Shown piece after piece: positions 4,172-17,435 of a stretch of 64,000 nt of DNA. The translations under genes were made by a program, and so were the position numbers. The stretch covers positions 9,650 to 73,649 of the forward strand of contig DATKWZ010000016.1 in assembly GCA_035529315.1 (NCBI GenBank), read 5' to 3'. A model generated the notes under the pieces. The model saw only the letters and a program-made list of their open reading frames with translations, did not search any database and was not told where the DNA came from. How positions within the stretch are numbered: the first letter of the stretch is position 1; the number at the start of each line of letters is the position of its first letter. This DNA comes from Anaerolineae bacterium (GTDB lineage Bacteria; Desulfobacterota; Desulfobacteria; Desulfobacterales; ETH-SRB1).

Positions 4172-5656
4172 ATGATCTGGGCATTAATTCTGATTCCGGC
4201 AGCCTGCGGCATATTGGCCTTCCCCCTGGCTTCCGACCGACTGAGCCGCACCCTGCTGGTCACGGCCGCACTGGCCCATTTCGCCCTTGTGCTGGCGGCA
4301 TGGCAAATGCCGCTGCCGTTTAACGCAGCAACCGGCTGGCTGACGGTAGACGCGGCATCTCTTTTATTTCTGAGCATCTGCAGCGGACTGTTTCTGGCAG
4401 CCTCCCTGTATGCGATCGACTACCTCGAGCGCTCGCCAAAGGCCCCGATTCGCGATTACCTGGAAGGCTTTCAATTCGGCAATCGCCCCGAACAGATTTT
4501 TATCGGCTGCCTGCTGCTGTTTCTGGCCGCCATGACCACGGTAATCGTTTCCAGCCACATGGGTATCCTCTGGGTGGCGGTGGAAGCCACTACGCTTGCC
4601 AGTGCACCGTTGATCTATTATCACCGGCACCATCGCAGCCTGGAAGCGGCCTGGAAATATCTGCTGATCTGTTCGGTAGGAATCGCGCTGGCACTGCTCG
4701 GCAATTTCTTTCTGGCCGTCGCAACCACCGCCAGACCCGGTCTGGAGCACAGTTTGCTGCTGCCGGAGCTCGTCAAAAACGCCGCCGGTTTTTCACCAAC
4801 CTGGCTCAAGGCCGCATTTATGCTGATGCTGGTGGGCTACGGCACCAAAATGGGCCTGGCCCCAATGCATACCTGGCTACCGGATGCCCACAGCGAATCG
4901 CCATCCTTAGTGTCGGCACTGTTGTCTGGGGCTCTTCTCAACTGCGCTTTTCTGGCGATTCTGCGCATGCATACCGTGCTGGTCGCCGCTGGCCTGGGCG
5001 ATTTCGGACGCGACATGTTGGTTCTCTTCGGCCTGTTTTCCATGGTATGGGCGGCTATACTACTGATTTCCCTGACCGATTATAAACGCATGCTGGCCTA
5101 TTCCAGTGTCGAACATATGGGAATTCTCGCGGTGGGCATCGGTTTGGGCGGAGCAGCCTCCGCCGGAGCCATGCTGCATGTGCTGAACCATTCTTTGACG
5201 AAAGCCGCGCTATTTTTTGTGGCCGGCAATATCCTGGCGGTTTACCGGAGCAAGAATGTCGGAGATGCCCGTGGGCTGCTCGGCATCCTGCCGGTCAGCG
5301 GCGTGCTGTGGCTGGCTGGAATTATAGCCATTACCGGATCGCCTCCCTTTGGATTGTTCACCAGCGAGCTGATGATCCTCAAAGGCGCGCTCGCCGGGAG
5401 CCGCTGGGCCGTAGCCGGCTGTTATCTGACAGCTTTATTTGTAGCCTTTGCCGCCATGGCATGGGCCGGAATGCGGATGGCCTATGGCCTCCCGGATACC
5501 CCACTCATTCATTCGAGGCCGGCTGCCGAATCCATGCTATCCGTGGCTGTTCCGGCGACACTGCTGGCTGTGGTTTTCGTACTGGGGTTGTGGGTGCCCC
5601 CGCCGTTGTGGAAGTTGATCAAGGCCTCTGCCGCGACCCTGGGAGGAGGTTTCTGA
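4172..5656 (+). CDS. Hydrogenase-4 component F-like / NuoN(M)-type antiporter-like subunit
   Basis: 494-aa polytopic protein with WLPDAHSESPSLVSALLSG and MLAYSSVEHMGI motifs. The stop overlaps the next start (ATGA at 5654-5658). Confidence 0.85.
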   Translation: MIWALILIPAACGILAFPLASDRLSRTLLVTAALAHFALVLAAWQMPLPFNAATGWLTVDAASLLFLSICSGLFLAASLYAIDYLERSPKAPIRDYLEGFQFGNRPEQIFIGCLLLFLAAMTTVIVSSHMGILWVAVEATTLASAPLIYYHRHHRSLEAAWKYLLICSVGIALALLGNFFLAVATTARPGLEHSLLLPELVKNAAGFSPTWLKAAFMLMLVGYGTKMGLAPMHTWLPDAHSESPSLVSALLSGALLNCAFLAILRMHTVLVAAGLGDFGRDMLVLFGLFSMVWAAILLISLTDYKRMLAYSSVEHMGILAVGIGLGGAASAGAMLHVLNHSLTKAALFFVAGNILAVYRSKNVGDARGLLGILPVSGVLWLAGIIAITGSPPFGLFTSELMILKGALAGSRWAVAGCYLTALFVAFAAMAWAGMRMAYGLPDTPLIHSRPAAESMLSVAVPATLLAVVFVLGLWVPPPLWKLIKASAATLGGGF

Positions 5657-7149
5657 TGTCCATGAACATGCCCTTTCTGTATAATGGTGAAACCGTCTTG
5701 ACTGCGGCAGTGCCGCTCATCGGCATTGATCGGTTTCGCTGTGAAGTGATCGAGCAAGTTGCCGGAGGCGGCCGCCTTTCGGCGCTCTTCGCAGTACAGC
5801 ATAACGGTCGTTTCAGGCTCTATGCGGTACTGTGCCTGCCGGCGCGCGAACAGGCAGGAATTGTAGCCACCAAAATCGATGCTATATACCCGTCACTGAC
5901 GCCGGACTGCCCATCGGCCCACTGGTTCGAGCGAGAAATCTTCGAGCAGTGGGGGATTCGGCCGCAAGGTCACCCCTGGCTCAAGCCGATCCGCTTCCAG
6001 CCGTCGGCCCGCGGCGCCGGTACGCCGGCGGTGGGCATTACCGATTTTTTCACCATGGCCGGCGAGGAGGTCCACGAGGTTGCGGTTGGGCCGGTACACG
6101 CGGGCATCATCGAACCGGGGCATTTTCGTTTTCAGTGCCACGGTGAAACCGTTTATCACCTGGAAATTTCACTCGGCTACCAGCACCGCGGGATCGAACG
6201 AGCCCTCGTCGGCGGACCCGGCCGGCGCACTATGCATTACATGGAGACCCTTGCCGGCGACAGCACAGTGGGCCATGCCGCAGCTTACTGCGCTATAATG
6301 GAGGCCCTCTGTGCAACAACGGTGCCGCTCGGCGCCGAGGCGATCCGAGCCATTGCCGCCGAATTAGAACGGATGGCTAACCATATCGGGGATATAGGAG
6401 CGATGGCCGGCGATGTTGGTTTCCTGCCCACGCTGAATTATTGCGGTCGAATCCGGGGAGATGTTCTGAATATGACCGCGCTGATCTGCGGCAATCGTTT
6501 CGGCCGGGGGCTGCTGACACCGGGCGGCGTCCGTTTCGGCCTCAGCGCGGACCGTCGCCGCCTTTTGGCAGAACGCCTCGATGCCGTGGAAAAAGATCTC
6601 AACTCTGCCGTGCCGCTGATGTTCAGCGCGCCTTCGGTTTTGTCGCGCATGGAAGGAACAGGGACGCTGACGGCGGATCTGGCACGGCAAATCGGGCTGG
6701 TGGGCGTGGCAGCCCGGGCGTGCGGGCTGCCCTGTGACGCTCGGACCCAGTTGCCCTATTCCCTTTACAGGTTCGACAGCCTGCCTACCGCCACGTACCA
6801 TACGGGTGACTGTTTTGCCAGAGCCTACATCCGCTGGCTGGAACTGAAGCATTCGATCGCGTTTGTCCGGCGGCAACTTGTAGCCCCAGCCGCTGAAAAC
6901 GGCCTGGTTGAGGCGTGCAACTCGCCGGGCCCCGACCGGATGGCTGTCGCGTTTAGCGAAGGTTGGCGGGGGGAAATCTGCCATGTGGCAGCCACGGACG
7001 CCCAGGGGCGTTTCGAGTTCTATAAAGTCATCGACCCCTCATTTCACAACTGGTTCGGCCTGGCCTATGCGCTGCGCGGGCAGGAAATTTCGGATTTTCC
7101 ACTATGCAACAAGAGCTTTAACCTGTCCTATTGCGGACACGATTTATAA
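5656..7149 (+). CDS. Group-4 [NiFe]-hydrogenase large-subunit homolog (NuoC+NuoD / HycE-HyfG-like) without NiFe Cys ligands
   Basis: Start at ATG 5656 (MSMNMPFLYNG); the ORF-track start at 5308 lies inside the upstream gene. GPVHAGIIEPGHFRF and LGYQHRGIE are HycE/HyfG hallmarks. There is no CxxC anywhere: LAGDSTVGH stands where RxCGxCxxxH is expected. Confidence 0.85.
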   Translation: MSMNMPFLYNGETVLTAAVPLIGIDRFRCEVIEQVAGGGRLSALFAVQHNGRFRLYAVLCLPAREQAGIVATKIDAIYPSLTPDCPSAHWFEREIFEQWGIRPQGHPWLKPIRFQPSARGAGTPAVGITDFFTMAGEEVHEVAVGPVHAGIIEPGHFRFQCHGETVYHLEISLGYQHRGIERALVGGPGRRTMHYMETLAGDSTVGHAAAYCAIMEALCATTVPLGAEAIRAIAAELERMANHIGDIGAMAGDVGFLPTLNYCGRIRGDVLNMTALICGNRFGRGLLTPGGVRFGLSADRRRLLAERLDAVEKDLNSAVPLMFSAPSVLSRMEGTGTLTADLARQIGLVGVAARACGLPCDARTQLPYSLYRFDSLPTATYHTGDCFARAYIRWLELKHSIAFVRRQLVAPAAENGLVEACNSPGPDRMAVAFSEGWRGEICHVAATDAQGRFEFYKVIDPSFHNWFGLAYALRGQEISDFPLCNKSFNLSYCGHDL

Positions 7150-13302: not shown

Positions 13303-13540
13303 TTATACAAATTCCACATATCGGTGATCAGGTATTTTTGCGAATTCATTTGTAAGCTTTCCTACGCATTTATGAAAATACAGGGTTTCAGCCCTGTTCT
13401 TGTAACGATCTTTTGTAGTTACGCCCTTTATCGCTCCGACCGGACATGCATCATGACACAACATACATTTTCCACAGCCCAAGTCCCTAATCCTCTCTGA
13501 ATAGAAAAAGTCGTCACTCCAAAAGACTGGATAGCGCTGA
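13303..13540 (-). pseudogene. Start-less fragment of a [4Fe-4S]-motif protein
   Basis: The minus-strand frame reads ...FYSERIRDLGCGKCMLCHDACPVGAIKG...HKCVGKLTNEF...VEFV*. It is bounded upstream by a stop and has no ATG before the Cys motif; only an in-frame TTG is present. It is absent from the ORF track. Confidence 0.3.
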
Positions 13541-13670
13541 TGGTTAGCGCTTCCGCTTTACTACATGTCACTTCGTGTCACTACGTGCCCGGCTTGTCTG
13601 CCACAGGCACGGCTGGAGTTTATCCCGCATTTGATGCGGGACCGGAATGATGAGAACCGGTATTTCCCGA

Positions 13671-13688
13671 CTTTTTACGAATCCATCA
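13671..13688 (+). repeat. Dispersed intergenic module CTTTTTACGA(A/G)YYYATCA (copy 1 of 3)
   Basis: The same 18-nt module, in the same orientation, occurs at 32316-32333 and 33620-33637. Each forms the 3' end of a longer intergenic repeat. Confidence 0.7.
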
Positions 13689-13725
13689 TAGACAACTCAT
13701 CGAAAAGATAATAAATTGACTTGGA

Positions 13726-13754
13726 AGTTTACATAATATATATTGCTTTAGATT
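13726..13754 (+). promoter_or_regulatory. Near-consensus sigma70-type promoter (TTGACT-17 nt-TATATT)
   Basis: -35 hexamer at 13726-13731, a 17-nt spacer, and -10 hexamer at 13749-13754. An A/T-rich upstream segment is conserved in all three cassette copies. Confidence 0.6.
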
Positions 13755-13760
13755 AATTTT

Positions 13761-13866
13761 GGTCTGTTTTTTGAACCTCAAGCAGGAGGATCACGTGACC
13801 AGCCATAATATTACAAAAAAATAAAGCCCCATTTCTTCAGTCATATGAAGGATGGGGCTTTTCGCT
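13761..13866 (+). ncRNA. Candidate ~105-nt small RNA or attenuating leader (copy 1)
   Basis: Runs from the predicted transcription start about 7 nt after the -10 to an intrinsic terminator (AAGCCCCAT...ATGGGGCTT stem at 13824-13860, then TTTT). It contains AGGAGGATCACGTGACC (a Shine-Dalgarno-like sequence, GTG, and the palindrome TCACGTGA). The ends are approximate. Confidence 0.4.
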
Positions 13867-13923
13867 TTACAGAGTAAATTTTATATTGACGGATGTAACT
13901 TCACGGGTTACATTTTTTATGTT

Positions 13924-14201
13924 ATGATAAAATCGTTTAAGCATAAAGGCTTGGAGGATTTTTTTTATACAGGTAGCAAGAGAGGAATTAAGACTGAATA
14001 TGCCAATAGGCTTGAACGAATCCTTGATCGGCTTAATTCCGCAAGTGAAATAAAAGATATGAATTACCCAGGTTCTTTCCTCCACCAGTTGAGCGGAAAT
14101 AAAAGGGCCTTCATTCAGTAAAAGTATCCGGCAATTGGCGTATATTCTTTAAATTTATGGATGGTGACGCCTATATTGTCGATTATGACGATTACCATTA
14201 G
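13924..14201 (+). pseudogene. higB: HigB-family (RelE/ParE superfamily) toxin, frameshifted
   Basis: MIKSFKHKGLEDFFYTGSKRGI is a HigB-family N-terminus. The frame stops at 14121, but the -1 frame continues VKVSGNWRIFFKFMDGDAYIVDYDDYH* to 14201. The shift maps to the A4 run at 14101-14104. Confidence 0.8.
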
Positions 14202-14213
14202 GAGATTAAAACA

Positions 14214-14534
14214 ATGCTAAAAATGATAAGACGCCCAACACATCCGGGCAATATAATAAAAGAAGACTATCTTTTACCCCTATCCATTACAATCAAGGAT
14301 ATGGCTGCAAATCTTGGTGTTTCAAGGAAAACATTATCAAAGATCATTAATGAAAGAGGGGCAATCACACCAGATATGGCTTTGCGCTTATCCCGTGCGT
14401 TCGATACTACTCCAGATTTATGGCTTAATTTGCAGAAAAACTATGATTTATGGGAAGCAGAAACGAAATCACAGGAATGGAAAAAGGTAAAACCATTCCC
14501 TCAGCATATGCTCTGTCATAATCCATCGTTTTAA
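14214..14534 (+). CDS. higA: HigA-family antitoxin (XRE-type HTH)
   Basis: THPGNIIKEDYLLPLSITIKDMAANLGVSRKTLSKIINERGAITPDMALRLSRAF is the canonical HigA HTH. The gene starts 13 nt after higB. Confidence 0.9.
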   Translation: MLKMIRRPTHPGNIIKEDYLLPLSITIKDMAANLGVSRKTLSKIINERGAITPDMALRLSRAFDTTPDLWLNLQKNYDLWEAETKSQEWKKVKPFPQHMLCHNPSF

Positions 14535-14604
14535 CAGCTAACACACATATATGAGCATTTCAGCGGACGTGGTGATCCGCGCCACTAATTGGTGATTAGT
14601 GATA

Positions 14605-14662
14605 ACTCATCGAAAAGATAACAAATCAACTTGGATGTTTACATAATATATATTGTTTTAGA
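14605..14662 (+). repeat. Promoter/leader cassette, promoter-only copy 2
   Basis: Shares ACTCATCGAAAAGATAA...TTGGATGTTTACATAATATATATTGTTTTAGA with copies 1 and 3. It then diverges straight into a GGAG ribosome-binding site and ATG 14678. Confidence 0.85.
14626..14654 (+). promoter_or_regulatory. Promoter of the SH3-anchor gene (TCAACT-17 nt-TATATT)
   Basis: Same geometry as the other two cassette promoters. The -35 hexamer is degenerate. Confidence 0.5.
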
Positions 14663-14677
14663 CGGCTTGGAGAAGAT

Positions 14678-15217
14678 ATGAAAAGATTCAAACTATTCAT
14701 TCCTGTGATTTTAACACTGTGTTTAATGGGGCAAACCGTTTGGGCCCAAAAGGCTTACGTTACAGATGAGTTTAGAATCAGCCTTCGTAGAGGACCAAGC
14801 ATTGAAAACAAAATCCTGAAATTTCTTCCCTCGGGTCAGGCAGTAGAAGTCTCAGAATCTCAAGAGGGTTGGTGTCGCATTACCGTCTCCGAAGGCGAGA
14901 ATAGCAACTTCCAGGGATGGGTCCTTAGCCGTTACCTTATTTCACGTCTACCATGGGAAATTCAGGCTAAGTCTTTGATAAAGGAAAATGCTCTGCTCAA
15001 GGAAAGACTGGTCAGTATTGAAAAAAAACAGGCGGTAACAACCCGTCTGGAACAGGATTTAACCAACGCTATTAATACCTTGACAAAGGAAAATAAGGAC
15101 TTGAGGTCTTCGAAAAGAACTAAATGGCTTACTATCGGCGCTTTGGTTCTACTCTGTGGCTTAATAATAGGCCTGATATTAGGGGGGCAACAGAAAAGAC
15201 GTCGTATATATAATTAG
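14678..15217 (+). CDS. SH3-domain protein with signal peptide, coiled coil and C-terminal membrane anchor (YgiM-like)
   Basis: N-terminal signal sequence (ILTLCLMGQTVWA). SH3_3-like core (YVTDEFRISLRRGPSIENKILKFLPSGQAVEV...WCRI). Heptad-rich middle. C-terminal TM segment followed by QQKRRRIYN. Confidence 0.8.
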   Translation: MKRFKLFIPVILTLCLMGQTVWAQKAYVTDEFRISLRRGPSIENKILKFLPSGQAVEVSESQEGWCRITVSEGENSNFQGWVLSRYLISRLPWEIQAKSLIKENALLKERLVSIEKKQAVTTRLEQDLTNAINTLTKENKDLRSSKRTKWLTIGALVLLCGLIIGLILGGQQKRRRIYN

Positions 15218-15517
15218 TTAATGTCCATCCAGAAATAGCATCTTTTGCCCCGAGGCAGCGTTCTCCGCGGGTTTCCGTCCTCGACGTAGCGCTGCTACGC
15301 CTGTGGCAAAAACCCTCTTGTAAAGGGGGACTAAAGGGTAACGATCTTAAGTTTATAAGTTTCTCATGCCTTCGTTGTTTTTTTGTGCTGTTGGGTGCGT
15401 GCAGGGGTTGTCAGCCATCCATCAGAATGGAATTTGGGTGGGTATAATGAAATTCAGGAGCCTCGTCAACGATATGCTTTAATAGATTATCAGCGCTTAA
15501 TGGATCTATTGCATATT

Positions 15518-15724
15518 TCAACTTCTTCTTCGTTCCCTTAAGCCACGCCGATCGTTCTTTACAGAGAGAAAAACAAAGATCCCTTCTCTTACGCTTTTCC
15601 GGCGATCATCCCTGTTTTTCCGCAGATCCTTGCGAAAACCATTTCTCTTTGCGACATAAGCATTAAGCCCTTTTTTAGAGGTATCCATTTTAACTGGTGC
15701 TGTATTTCCTATTATAATATCCAT
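15518..15724 (-). CDS. Small basic hypothetical protein (68 aa)
   Basis: A GGAG ribosome-binding site lies 7 nt upstream of the ATG. The C-terminus is Arg/Lys/Asp-rich. I recognise no family. Confidence 0.4.
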   Translation of the reverse strand: MDIIIGNTAPVKMDTSKKGLNAYVAKRNGFRKDLRKNRDDRRKSVREGIFVFLSVKNDRRGLRERRRS

Positions 15725-15914
15725 GAGTAATCTCCTTAAAATCCTTGCGCAGCCTTGTCCCTGAATAAAATTTACTAAAAAGGCTTTAATGTTTTAATCG
15801 GTATTAAGTATTAAATACTTTAATCACCAATTTTTGTCATCTTGTTTACCACAAAAGGGAAAAGGTGTTTTTGTGATGTAAAATACCTTTTTAAGGTAAA
15901 AAGTGTATAAGAGG

Positions 15915-15970
15915 ATGGCAAGAGCAAAAAGACATTACCTTCCAGGACACGTATGGCACATCACGCATTG
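15915..15970 (+). pseudogene. Short 5' stub resembling an IS200/Y1 (COG1943-type) transposase gene
   Basis: MARAKRHYLPGHVWHITH matches, from memory, the N-terminus of this transposase family. The similarity ends after about 18 codons, and the remaining reading frame runs into cassette copy 3. Confidence 0.35.
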
Positions 15971-16058
15971 TGGAATCGGGGGGTGCATATCATCAAACGC
16001 AGGCTGCTTATGGCAAAAAAGACAAAGGATAGAGTGGACTCATCGAAAAGATAATAAA

Positions 16059-16087
16059 TTGACTTGGATGTTTACATGATATATATT
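16059..16087 (+). promoter_or_regulatory. Near-consensus sigma70-type promoter (TTGACT-17 nt-TATATT)
   Basis: -35 hexamer at 16059-16064 and -10 hexamer at 16082-16087. Confidence 0.6.
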
Positions 16088-16093
16088 GTTTTA

Positions 16094-16207
16094 AATTAAT
16101 TTCGGTCTGTTTTTTGAACCTCAAACCGGAGGATCACGTGACCAGCCATGGTATTAAAAAAATGAAGCCCCATTTCTTCAGAAATATGAAGGATGGGGCT
16201 TTTTGCT
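16094..16207 (+). ncRNA. Candidate small RNA or attenuating leader (copy 2)
   Basis: Same architecture as 13761-13866. The terminator stem lies at 16165-16200 and is followed by TTTT. The next gene starts about 170 nt downstream. Confidence 0.4.
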
Positions 16208-16373
16208 TATGCAGGCCTGGATCTGGAACCATGAACTAAAAAAAAGATTTAGCTGTTCTATTTTTGATAATACAAACTTATAAACTGAAGAGCATCCCGT
16301 AAGTACACATAGAATATAAACTTAGTGCCTTTTGAGAGCAAACACCAACATCAATCTTAAGGAGGTAGAGATC

Positions 16374-17435
16374 ATGTCGGAAAGTCAGATGAAAGATCGT
16401 ATTGCAGAGGAGTTAAAGAAGGCTAAAGAGGCTGGACAGATCACTACGGAAAAGGTGCGTGAGATTGTCAGGGAAGCGGTATCTGATGCCGTGGCCGAAA
16501 CCAGGGGCAGTGTTGAGGCGCTTCGCCCTGTTGTTAAGGATGCTGTAGCTGCGGCCGTGGATAGTTTGAAGGATGCCGGAGAGGCAAAAGAGACCGTAGA
16601 AGGTGCTGTAGAAGGTGCCATTGCCGGCGTTCGCAGCCACGGAGATCATGCAGTGGAGGCTACCCGGAACGAACTCCGGAAACTCGAAAAACGGCTCGAA
16701 GATGAGAAGACGGAGCTGGCGCAAAGTCTCAGAAAAGGCATTGAAGGGGCAAAAGAGGCAGGGGCTGCATTGCCCAAAGATATCAGAGAGAGGGTTGAAT
16801 CTGCTGTATCCGACATTAAACTGAAAAGTACGGAACTGTTGGGTTTGACCAGACAGACTATTAAAGAAGCAGTCAAACACACCATTGAGTCCGGCAAAGA
16901 TGTCAAAGAAACTGTTGCTAAGATTACCAGAGATGCCGCGGAAAGAGCTCTGAAAGAAGGCCGGTTCAGTGCGGACAGAGTGAAGAGAATTGCCGAAAAA
17001 GTCATGTCCGGCGCGGTGGAAGCCGCCGAGGAGACCGGCAAAGAGATTAAGAATGTTGCTGTTGGCACTTTTGAAGGGGTTCAGAAAGGGATCGCAACAG
17101 GAATAGAATCTGTTGGAGATAAGACAAAGGCATTTGTCCGTGAGGACATTGCCCGGACAAAGGAAGATTTTGAGGCGATCGAGAGCCTTTTCATTGAGAC
17201 TACCCGCAAAGTAGCCCAACGTTCGGGAGATGTGGCAAAGGACGTATTGAATGATCTTGCCGATAAGACCAAAAAAACAACAAAATCAACCACGGAAGCT
17301 GTCGGCAAAGCAGCCCATATTATGGCCGAAGAAGCAAAGGAACTCGGGAAAAGGTCTGTAGCTGTGGCAAAGGGAGCTATCTCCGGCATGTGGAAGGGAG
17401 CAAAAGAGGCTATTAAAAAAGAGAAGGAGGAATAA
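16374..17435 (+). CDS. Ala/Glu/Lys-rich helical-repeat protein (LEA/apolipoprotein/phasin-like composition)
   Basis: An AAGGAGG ribosome-binding site precedes ATG 16374. Amphipathic segments recur (VREAVSDAVAE, VKDAVAAAVDS, VEGAVEGAIAG, IKEAVKHTIES). There is no TM segment and no Cys. Confidence 0.75.
   Translation: MSESQMKDRIAEELKKAKEAGQITTEKVREIVREAVSDAVAETRGSVEALRPVVKDAVAAAVDSLKDAGEAKETVEGAVEGAIAGVRSHGDHAVEATRNELRKLEKRLEDEKTELAQSLRKGIEGAKEAGAALPKDIRERVESAVSDIKLKSTELLGLTRQTIKEAVKHTIESGKDVKETVAKITRDAAERALKEGRFSADRVKRIAEKVMSGAVEAAEETGKEIKNVAVGTFEGVQKGIATGIESVGDKTKAFVREDIARTKEDFEAIESLFIETTRKVAQRSGDVAKDVLNDLADKTKKTTKSTTEAVGKAAHIMAEEAKELGKRSVAVAKGAISGMWKGAKEAIKKEKEE

Follow-up and report, generated by a model that had tools for sequence, protein, structure and literature searches.

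Three copies of a promoter-to-terminator cassette in a Desulfobacterales contig are probably pieces of a modular, dispersed repeat family

A 64,000-nucleotide stretch of DNA assigned to Desulfobacterales (GenBank assembly GCA_035529315.1, contig DATKWZ010000016.1, positions 9,650 to 73,649 of the forward strand; hereafter the window) carries a promoter-bearing cassette three times within 2.5 kb. Two full copies, A (13695-13867) and C (16038-16208), lie upstream of the toxin gene higB and of a helical-repeat gene of family DUF6781, respectively, and a short copy, B (14605-14662), precedes an SH3 gene. An earlier note on this DNA read the full copies as either a duplicated small RNA (sRNA) or a terminator-containing leader of the genes that follow them. 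The locus thus raises the question of whether the cassette is a local regulatory device or a member of something more widespread. On balance, the three copies are probably pieces of a modular repeat family that is dispersed in Desulfobacterales and has a self-contained transcription unit as its core. What appears to be local regulatory design would then be a property of the repeat family. The evidence lies in the anatomy of the unit, its pattern of conservation, its sharp-ended dispersal, its inverted repeats and its lack of linkage to any gene family.

Copies A and C are collinear at ~92% identity, with a single 2-nt indel between two blocks that a repeat finder aligned at 92% each (13695-13819 with 16038-16162, and 13815-13867 with 16156-16208), in agreement with the ~170 bp of collinearity described in the earlier note. 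Copy B, also recognized there, comprises only the first 58-62 nt, corresponding to the promoter part, and belongs to a three-copy family (13691-13752, 14601-14662 and 16034-16095) at 89-90% identity. Exactly three occurrences of the 17-mer ACTCATCGAAAAGATAA are present in the 64 kb, a count reached in none of 100 shuffles, and the 22-mer GGAGGATCACGTGACCAGCCAT around the Shine-Dalgarno (SD) sequence occurs exactly twice, with none expected. Copies A and C match perfectly throughout a stretch of 31 nt (13695-13725 and 16038-16068). Copy C is longer than first described, its homology to family members extending ~100 nt past the earlier limit, to ~16307. This added 3' module (16209-16307, plus strand) is found in most family members and ends in the terminal motif AAACTTATAAACTGAAGAGCATCCCGTAAGTA (16274-16307), which forms the right inverted repeat and has its inverted partner at 15331-15365. 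Since the identity between A and C (91%) is no higher than that of either to copies in other genomes (89-93%), the two are not recent local duplicates of each other. The window sits on a 161-kb metagenome contig, and its arrangement recurs, from 14463 onward, in another, independent assembly. No variant lacking the 2.3 kb bracketed by A and C, a segment previously thought prone to excision, was seen.

The shared promoter reported earlier is present in all three copies, on the plus strand. In copy A, the promoter module (13695-13750) consists of an A/T-rich tract (13695-13715), a -35 hexamer TTGACT (13716-13721), a 17-nt spacer and a -10 hexamer TATATT (13739-13744). The module of copy C (16038-16093) has the same hexamers at 16059-16064 and 16082-16087, and copy B (14605-14662), which is promoter module only, reads TCAACT-17-TATATT, with its hexamers at 14626-14631 and 14649-14654. 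A promoter scan returned TTGACT-17-TATATT at 13716-13744 and 16059-16087, with 10/12 matches. Among 18 distinct copies, the hexamers and their spacing are kept and the spacer sequence varies, with majority fractions per column of 0.95 for the -35 box and 0.96 for the -10 box, against 0.85 for the spacer. The spacing falls within the 17 ± 1 nt of a sigma-70 promoter, and the hexamers are conserved above their surroundings, as expected of such a promoter. In the most divergent copy (locus L017; loci outside the window are denoted by such labels), the upstream sequence is unrelated, yet the -10 box, 17 nt from a GTCTG, and the RNA segment are kept. Homology in copy B stops at approximately the predicted start site, which leaves 16 nt to the ATG of the SH3 gene (14678), and copy B is plausibly a promoter fusion to this gene; the earlier proposal that it drives the gene directly fits this geometry, the driving itself being predicted.

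Downstream of the promoter, both full copies are predicted to encode a short RNA closed by an intrinsic terminator. The ~112-nt transcript predicted for copy A (13751-13868, plus strand) has a weak 5' hairpin, an A-rich linker and a terminator, and folds at -37.3 kcal/mol (z = -4.4). Its terminator (13823-13868, plus strand) is a 16-pair bulged stem with a 6-nt loop and a U-run, the hairpin itself spanning 13823-13861. The transcript predicted for copy C (16094-16209, plus strand) has its terminator hairpin at 16164-16202 and its U-run at 16200-16204. Folding of A and C bears out the long GC-rich hairpin and T-run of the earlier note: folded alone, the hairpin reaches -22.3 kcal/mol (z = -5.9) and is followed by UUUU(C/U)GCUU, although a simple terminator scan passes over it owing to a one-base bulge. 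The copy A terminator is potentially bidirectional because an A-run lies on its 5' side. Compensatory changes in the hairpin across relatives, which had been proposed as a check, are present: of 14 aligned pairs, two are compensatory and four have one-sided consistent changes, and 99.6% of cells are paired, compared with 35-54% when the partners are slid.

Across the family, the unit follows a constant order. The A/T-rich tract, -35 box, 17-nt spacer and -10 box are followed by ~20 variable nucleotides around the predicted start, then by the near-invariant segment GGTCTGTTTTTTGAACCTCAA-NNNN-GGAGGATCACGTGACC, an A-rich linker that varies, and the terminator. Past the terminator, most copies run on for ~100 nt, ending in AAACTTATAAACTGAGGAACGTCCC(W)TAAATA; copy A, L006-1 and L008 end directly after the terminator. 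Majority fractions in the 18 copies are 0.94-0.96 for the terminator stems, 0.83 for the loop, 0.87 for the linker and ~0.8 for the 3' region, and reach 0.95 in that part of the 5' segment lying outside the search pattern. In the predicted fold, the SD sequence contributes its GGAGG to the 5' hairpin, with CCUC as the partner, such that the SD and the GUG start codon are partly tucked in. The RNA has no match to Rfam 15 at the gathering threshold in the window or the 18 loci, and a relaxed search (E <= 10) of 13400-16500 returned nothing relevant.

The cassette is not unique to this contig; uniqueness to the contig was what the earlier note had named as counting against its proposal. The sigma-70-type promoter with its hairpin-terminated unit of ~112 nt is conserved in about 20 further loci. 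An exact-pattern scan of species-representative genomes with a promoter 22-mer recovered two metagenome-assembled genomes (MAGs) of Desulfobacterales/Desulfobacteraceae, and a scan of Joint Genome Institute (JGI) metagenome contigs with a pattern from the SD/GTG region recovered 18 contigs, with several samples containing at least two distinct cassette loci each. Neither BLAST searches of plasmids and phages with 15325-16310 nor two pattern scans run on viral contigs gave a match. The modules also occur apart: the promoter alone in window copy B, L007:959 and L006:4011; the RNA without promoter in L019 and L006-2; the 3' module alone in L007:1850; and the terminal ~45-nt motif, alone or in tandem, in L013:223, L010:2066, L017:6763 and L018. 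Break points cluster at the predicted transcription start. A second repeat-like stretch (13560-13694) has ACTTTTTACGAATCCATCA as its end, immediately 5' of copy A; the same type of end motif (ACTTTTTACAAAACCATCAAA) adjoins the RNA module in L006-2 and L019, at the place of the missing promoter, and in L006 this stretch also lies within a ~160-nt insertion that splits a cassette between the -35 box and the start site.

The fullest form of the repeat resembles a MITE, a miniature transposable element with inverted repeats. A unit of ~445 bp, delimited at -256 to +194 from the start of the search pattern, is present in L010, L011 (= L014), L016 (= L023), L020 and L022 at 95-99% identity, and is the sole sequence shared within ±1500 nt by all pairs of these five contexts. 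Its ends are inverted repeats of 26-29 nt, AGGGACGTTCTTCAGATTATAAGTTT and its complement, that are 86-92% complementary in L016, L011 and L022. The unit is short, has no transposase gene and contains as its only open reading frame (ORF) one of 8-10 codons. A left arm is also recognizable in the window (15331-15394, minus strand), composed of the inverted terminal motif (15331-15365) and ~30 nt common to the left arms of the same five loci. Here 15345-15362 pairs with 16274-16291, an 18-nt core at 94% complementarity, within an imperfect inverted repeat of ~33 nt (15331-15365 with 16274-16307). The arm is ~700 nt upstream of copy C, compared with ~170 nt in the ~445-bp units, and copies A and B are fragments without inverted-repeat ends.

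Several further features were seen at the ends of the repeat. In L016 (= L023), at 6950-7035, the ~445-bp repeat abuts a CRISPR array (repeat CTTTTAATCAGACCAGAATGGAATTGAAAC) at its last, truncated repeat; a resemblance to trans-activating CRISPR RNA was considered and set aside, as only 6 nt are common to the two by eye. L018 has a 34-nt tandem duplication at the repeat end (821-879), L022 contains CTTAAATA twice (~5206-5250 in the oriented contig), the left end in L011 (9325-9350) reiterates TTAAGGGACATC/TTATGGGACATC, and L017 has a second terminal motif 40 nt downstream (6724-6812). Such reiterated ends suggest repeated events at the termini. A likeness of the ends to the inverted repeats of the Tn3 family (GGG...CTCAG) was considered and dropped, no 5-bp duplication being present.

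The proposed mechanism is as follows. The A/T-rich tract and sigma-70 promoter would start a ~112-nt RNA with a strong SD and a GUG start, and the core would yield a short self-terminating RNA, either an sRNA or a micro-mRNA; its terminator would in addition block read-through from a co-oriented upstream gene. Breakage at the transcription start would leave a promoter module that drives the downstream gene, as predicted for copy B and the SH3 gene. In copy A, the promoter, RNA and terminator would have moved together with higBA in a module of 961 bp; copy C would be a nearly full unit whose left arm has been split off by transposase debris. The copies may have arisen by insertion and by recombination among members of the family, the region being rich in mobile DNA, and would not have been built as regulators of higB or the DUF6781 gene.

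Some observations weigh against this account. For the RNA, the 5' hairpin alone (-10.3 kcal/mol, z = -0.8) is not statistically unusual, and its helix pairs are invariant in a region partly fixed by the search pattern, so that covariation support does not extend beyond the terminator; the diverged L011 copy also has a different fold. The data hence support a conserved promoter-to-terminator unit, and this support does not reach to a structured RNA domain. For the location of the cassette, a crude longest-frame measure placed it in the same orientation as the next gene in 14 of 16 loci (p = 0.004; on inspection, in all), with counts that are not fully independent given that some loci are related. 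Co-orientation suits a role in cis more than a purely autonomous sRNA, and leaves room for such a role as a boundary or as a portable promoter or attenuator; upstream genes are mostly co-oriented with the cassette too. For mobility, the units end in CTTA|GGGAC...GTCCC|TTAA, where a TTA/TAA duplication is indistinguishable from conserved element sequence, so that a target-site duplication of 2-5 bp is not definable and one of 5 bp is not present. No autonomous insertion sequence (IS) with matching ends was found among plasmids, phages, viral contigs or intact Y1 transposase loci, and no empty insertion site was recovered. The left arm is different in the L009 group and absent from L018, and conservation is higher in the interior than at the ends, which is unusual for a MITE. 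Mobility can therefore be inferred from the distribution only, and the family is best described from its sequences as MITE-like and modular rather than as a proven MITE.

The micro-ORF bears most directly on what the unit might do. In copy A it occupies 13795-13824 on the plus strand (GTG ACC AGC CAT AAT ATT ACA AAA AAA TAA, encoding MTSHNITKK*), beginning 5 nt after an AGGAGGA at 13784-13790. The GTG of copy C at 16138 opens a 33-codon frame (16138-16239) because of a 2-nt deletion relative to A, and the contrast of nine and 33 codons noted earlier is confirmed. Most distinct copies, including the diverged L011:1593-1853, have 8-10 codons closed by a TAA overlapping the base of the terminator (1 nt before GCCCC), and the consensus is M-T-[S/N/C/I]-[H/N/Y]-x-[I/V]-[T/I]-[K/R/N]-[K/R/N]. 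Changes that preserve the residue or its character occur: L011:1593-1853 keeps a nine-codon frame with a TTG start and an AGT-to-TCC switch of serine codon, and L026 has AGA AGA in place of AAA AAA (lysine to arginine). These are suggestive of protein-level constraint, not decisive. Such constraint was rejected on other grounds: substitutions fall across all three codon positions with no third-position bias, and the frame is broken in approximately one-third of distinct copies, through an A7/A8 run, the 2-nt deletion of window copy C or loss of the stop codon, with one of about four indel events in frame. The peptide is thus unlikely to be the functional product.

The same features bring into view a first alternative, which has a small but real chance of being correct, namely that the cassette is a mobile promoter and leader acting as an attenuator. 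A ribosome on the nine-codon ORF would block the 5' arm of the terminator hairpin and allow read-through into downstream genes, with opening of the SD-sequestering 5' hairpin as the regulated step. The strong SD, the GUG and the short ORF with its TAA at the terminator base in most distinct copies suit this idea, as do the serine and arginine codon changes just described, the co-orientation with the next gene, and the promoter modules ahead of genes in copy B and L007. Yet the terminator is strong (-22 kcal/mol), the folds contain no antiterminator alternative, frame breaks are frequent and substitutions have no third-position bias, and the downstream genes are unrelated and 140-600 nt away, higB having a promoter of its own. 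Furthermore, ~100 nt of conserved sequence that is not leader, including an inverted-repeat end, follows the terminator.

About equally improbable is that the cassette is a functionless relic. In this case, an IS would have undergone internal deletion, fusing the promoter, ribosome-binding site and first codons of its transposase gene to the last codons and terminator, and would have spread non-autonomously. Dispersal with inverted-repeat ends, full expression signals around almost no coding sequence, and a weakly constrained peptide are what such a history would leave. Against it, none of the 18 metagenome matches to the pattern of SD, GTG and second codon opens a long ORF, and plasmids, phages and viral contigs gave no match. 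The hexamers, their spacing and the terminator pairing are also kept while neighbouring sequence drifts, across subfamilies with different arms, and the core is more conserved than the ends.

A further possibility is slightly less probable than either of these: the core would be a portable switch of expression that senses ribosomes, made of a promoter, a micro-ORF with its SD masked and a terminator, on a MITE-like vehicle, and the family a mobile attenuator regulon. If this were true, the repeat would insert ahead of accessory genes in the toxin-antitoxin-rich islands of Desulfobacterales, insulating them from upstream transcription and placing them under common, translation-dependent control of read-through.

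A leader or riboregulator specific to higB and the DUF6781 gene, one of the two options of the earlier note, is very improbable. The cassette is indeed upstream of and co-oriented with both genes, and it is co-inherited with higBA in MAG L006, where a 961-bp module (cassette, higBA and promoter) is shared with the window at 92.6% identity. In L006 the module is in a different context, after vapBC and selB, and its coding parts are 96% identical compared with 84-91% for the cassette. Past terminator A, higB has its own promoter-like site (13886-13914, plus strand), TTGACG-17-TACATT spanning the inverted repeat GTAACTTCACGGGTTAC, a putative operator, and this site is conserved with the L006 higBA module. 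Four loci contain orthologues of the DUF6781 gene (66-86% identity, upstream gaps of 47-211 nt), and neither nhmmer nor BLAST found the cassette in any of them. Homology to these loci restarts at 16315, directly past the repeat. The genes that follow the cassette in 16 other loci are unrelated, encoding GrpB, an NMT1-type binding protein, a Kef-like transporter, toxins and orphans at 140-600 nt. Because higB has its own promoter, DUF6781 orthologues are cassette-free and the downstream genes vary, a gene-specific leader is not supported by these comparisons for either gene.

Other properties of these neighbours were observed in passing. Within higB (13924-14203), a 1-nt deletion in an A-run near 14100 interrupts a frame that the intact 92-aa HigB of L006 (96% nucleotide identity) reads through; this may be either a pseudogene beside an intact higA or a homopolymer assembly error. 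The native upstream region of the DUF6781 gene (16315-16373; TATAAACTTAGTGYCTTTTGAGAGCAAAYACCAACATCAA...AGGAGG) is conserved in the cassette-free orthologues of L032 and L035. The genes next to the orthologues are of phasin-like, ABC1/UbiB or patatin type, a setting that hints at a function connected with lipid or storage granules. In L006, L008 and L026, the cassette is a few hundred nucleotides to ~1 kb downstream of selB, with type II toxin-antitoxin pairs between or after them; the window has no selB nearby, and L008 has the NYN and HemN genes of the window at 87-95% nucleotide identity. The region from the cassette to these genes is extensively rearranged between close relatives. PADLOC, run on the downstream orphans and the neighbours in the window, gave weak coiled-coil-type matches only.

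Two remaining explanations have very little probability, and still less than a dedicated leader. A type I toxin-antitoxin-like multicopy locus, with a small toxic ORF and a convergent antisense RNA sharing a bidirectional terminator, would be in keeping with the multiple copies, the SD in a hairpin, the potentially bidirectional terminator, the toxin-antitoxin-rich islands and a minus-strand TTTATA-18-TAGAAT in the 3' module of some copies, but the ORF encodes nine hydrophilic residues, longer frames differ among copies, and about half of the copies have TAGAAC or TAAAAC as their antisense -10 box, the site not being detected in the window. Toxin-antitoxin cassettes are common in chromosomal integrons (PMC8618304) and L006 and the window have repeat-pair-repeat arrays, but attC-type cassette boundaries are discounted by aligned copies that on reading have no GTTRRRY core or R''/L''-L'/R' architecture, by the promoter and terminator inside the unit, by truncation at varied points, and by the absence of an integrase from the called genes around the inspected loci, no dedicated search having been made.

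Between copies B and C lie the remains of another mobile element. Scrambled fragments of a split Y1 (IS200-like) transposase gene are present at 15394-15522, 15860-15968 and 15968-16011 (15394-16011 overall, plus strand), and a chimeric protein query placed the transposase-like stub of the earlier note and a second fragment in the Y1 (IS200-like, PF01797) family. The stub is thus transposase-derived as proposed, and is one of three scrambled fragments, the others having been missed. In intact Y1 loci (L027-L029), the gene is split into a 120-aa PF01797 ORF and a 138-aa ORF starting MVRAGVV. The window fragments and a 68-aa basic ORF had no match in Pfam or NCBIfam; this ORF, on the minus strand between the fragments, is unsupported. 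An arrangement like that of repetitive extragenic palindromes (REP) and their associated tyrosine transposases (RAYT), with the inverted motif flanking a Y1 transposase, was entertained and rejected, as the intact loci L027-L031 have neither the motif nor the cassette. No functional link between Y1 and the cassette is drawn for this reason. On the other side of copy A, a truncated 59-aa 4Fe-4S ferredoxin-like ORF (13303-13482, minus strand), between a 1314-aa pentapeptide/adenylate-cyclase-like gene and copy A, is probably a gene remnant. No transfer RNA (tRNA) or transfer-messenger RNA (tmRNA) was found as an island anchor.

Under the favoured reading of a dispersed modular repeat, the 13.2-16.3 kb region would best be annotated as a mosaic of mobile DNA, in which a higBA module lies with fragments of promoters, debris of a transposase gene and a MITE-like unit, without dedicated leaders. 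The family would offer a concrete case of portable promoters and terminators shuffled among accessory genes, in which breaks at the transcription start generate promoter-only and RNA-only fragments. It also provides a candidate sRNA or micro-ORF unit outside Rfam, with ~20 aligned examples from uncultured sediment Desulfobacterales, a group with almost no characterized riboregulators; a search of the literature on MITEs in Desulfobacter* brought up nothing but a review of integrons. The RNA, if expressed, would be an easy target for metatranscriptome mapping.

The family can be compared with several known systems. The QUAD/Sib-Ibs and LDR loci of Escherichia coli occur in several genomic copies as units of a few hundred base pairs, each with its own promoter, small RNA and terminator. 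Unlike these, the window family lacks a hydrophobic toxin ORF, and an antisense promoter is not consistently conserved in it. In leader-peptide attenuators, likewise, an SD is combined with a short ORF that runs up to the base of an intrinsic terminator; the window family differs from them in having no alternative antiterminator, conserved regulated gene or reading-frame constraint. Correia elements (CREE/NEMIS) of Neisseria are ~100-155 bp long, create a duplication of a TA target and carry outward-reading promoters close to their ends. The window family is longer (~445 bp), has no detectable target duplication, encloses a promoter-to-terminator unit, is better conserved in its interior than at its ends and has modules that also occur separately. 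One review (PMC3184786) covers all of the closest kinds: MITEs that bear promoters, with the Correia elements as an example; REP2 of Neisseria and the inverted repeats (IR) of Borrelia; and SPRITE. As in the window family, Correia elements are small, non-coding dispersed units with terminal inverted repeats; they have functional promoter elements and can alter the expression of neighbouring genes (PMC3184786). REP2 and the Borrelia IR share with it a promoter, ribosome-binding site and start codon, stem-loops and a co-oriented position upstream of diverse genes (PMC3184786). In REP2, however, the ATG is described as an initiation codon and the repeat is immediately 5' of ORFs, whereas the GTG of the window family opens 8-10 codons before a terminator and only the truncated copy B directly precedes a gene; REP2 also lacks the inverted-repeat ends seen in some window-family members. 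SPRITE is likewise a dispersed repeat with a terminator-like hairpin as its main structure (PMC3184786), but is ~105 bp long, has no promoter or ORF module, and belongs to a different phylum with no sequence relationship. The window family joins features of the Correia, REP2/IR and SPRITE kinds in one unit, in an unstudied lineage.

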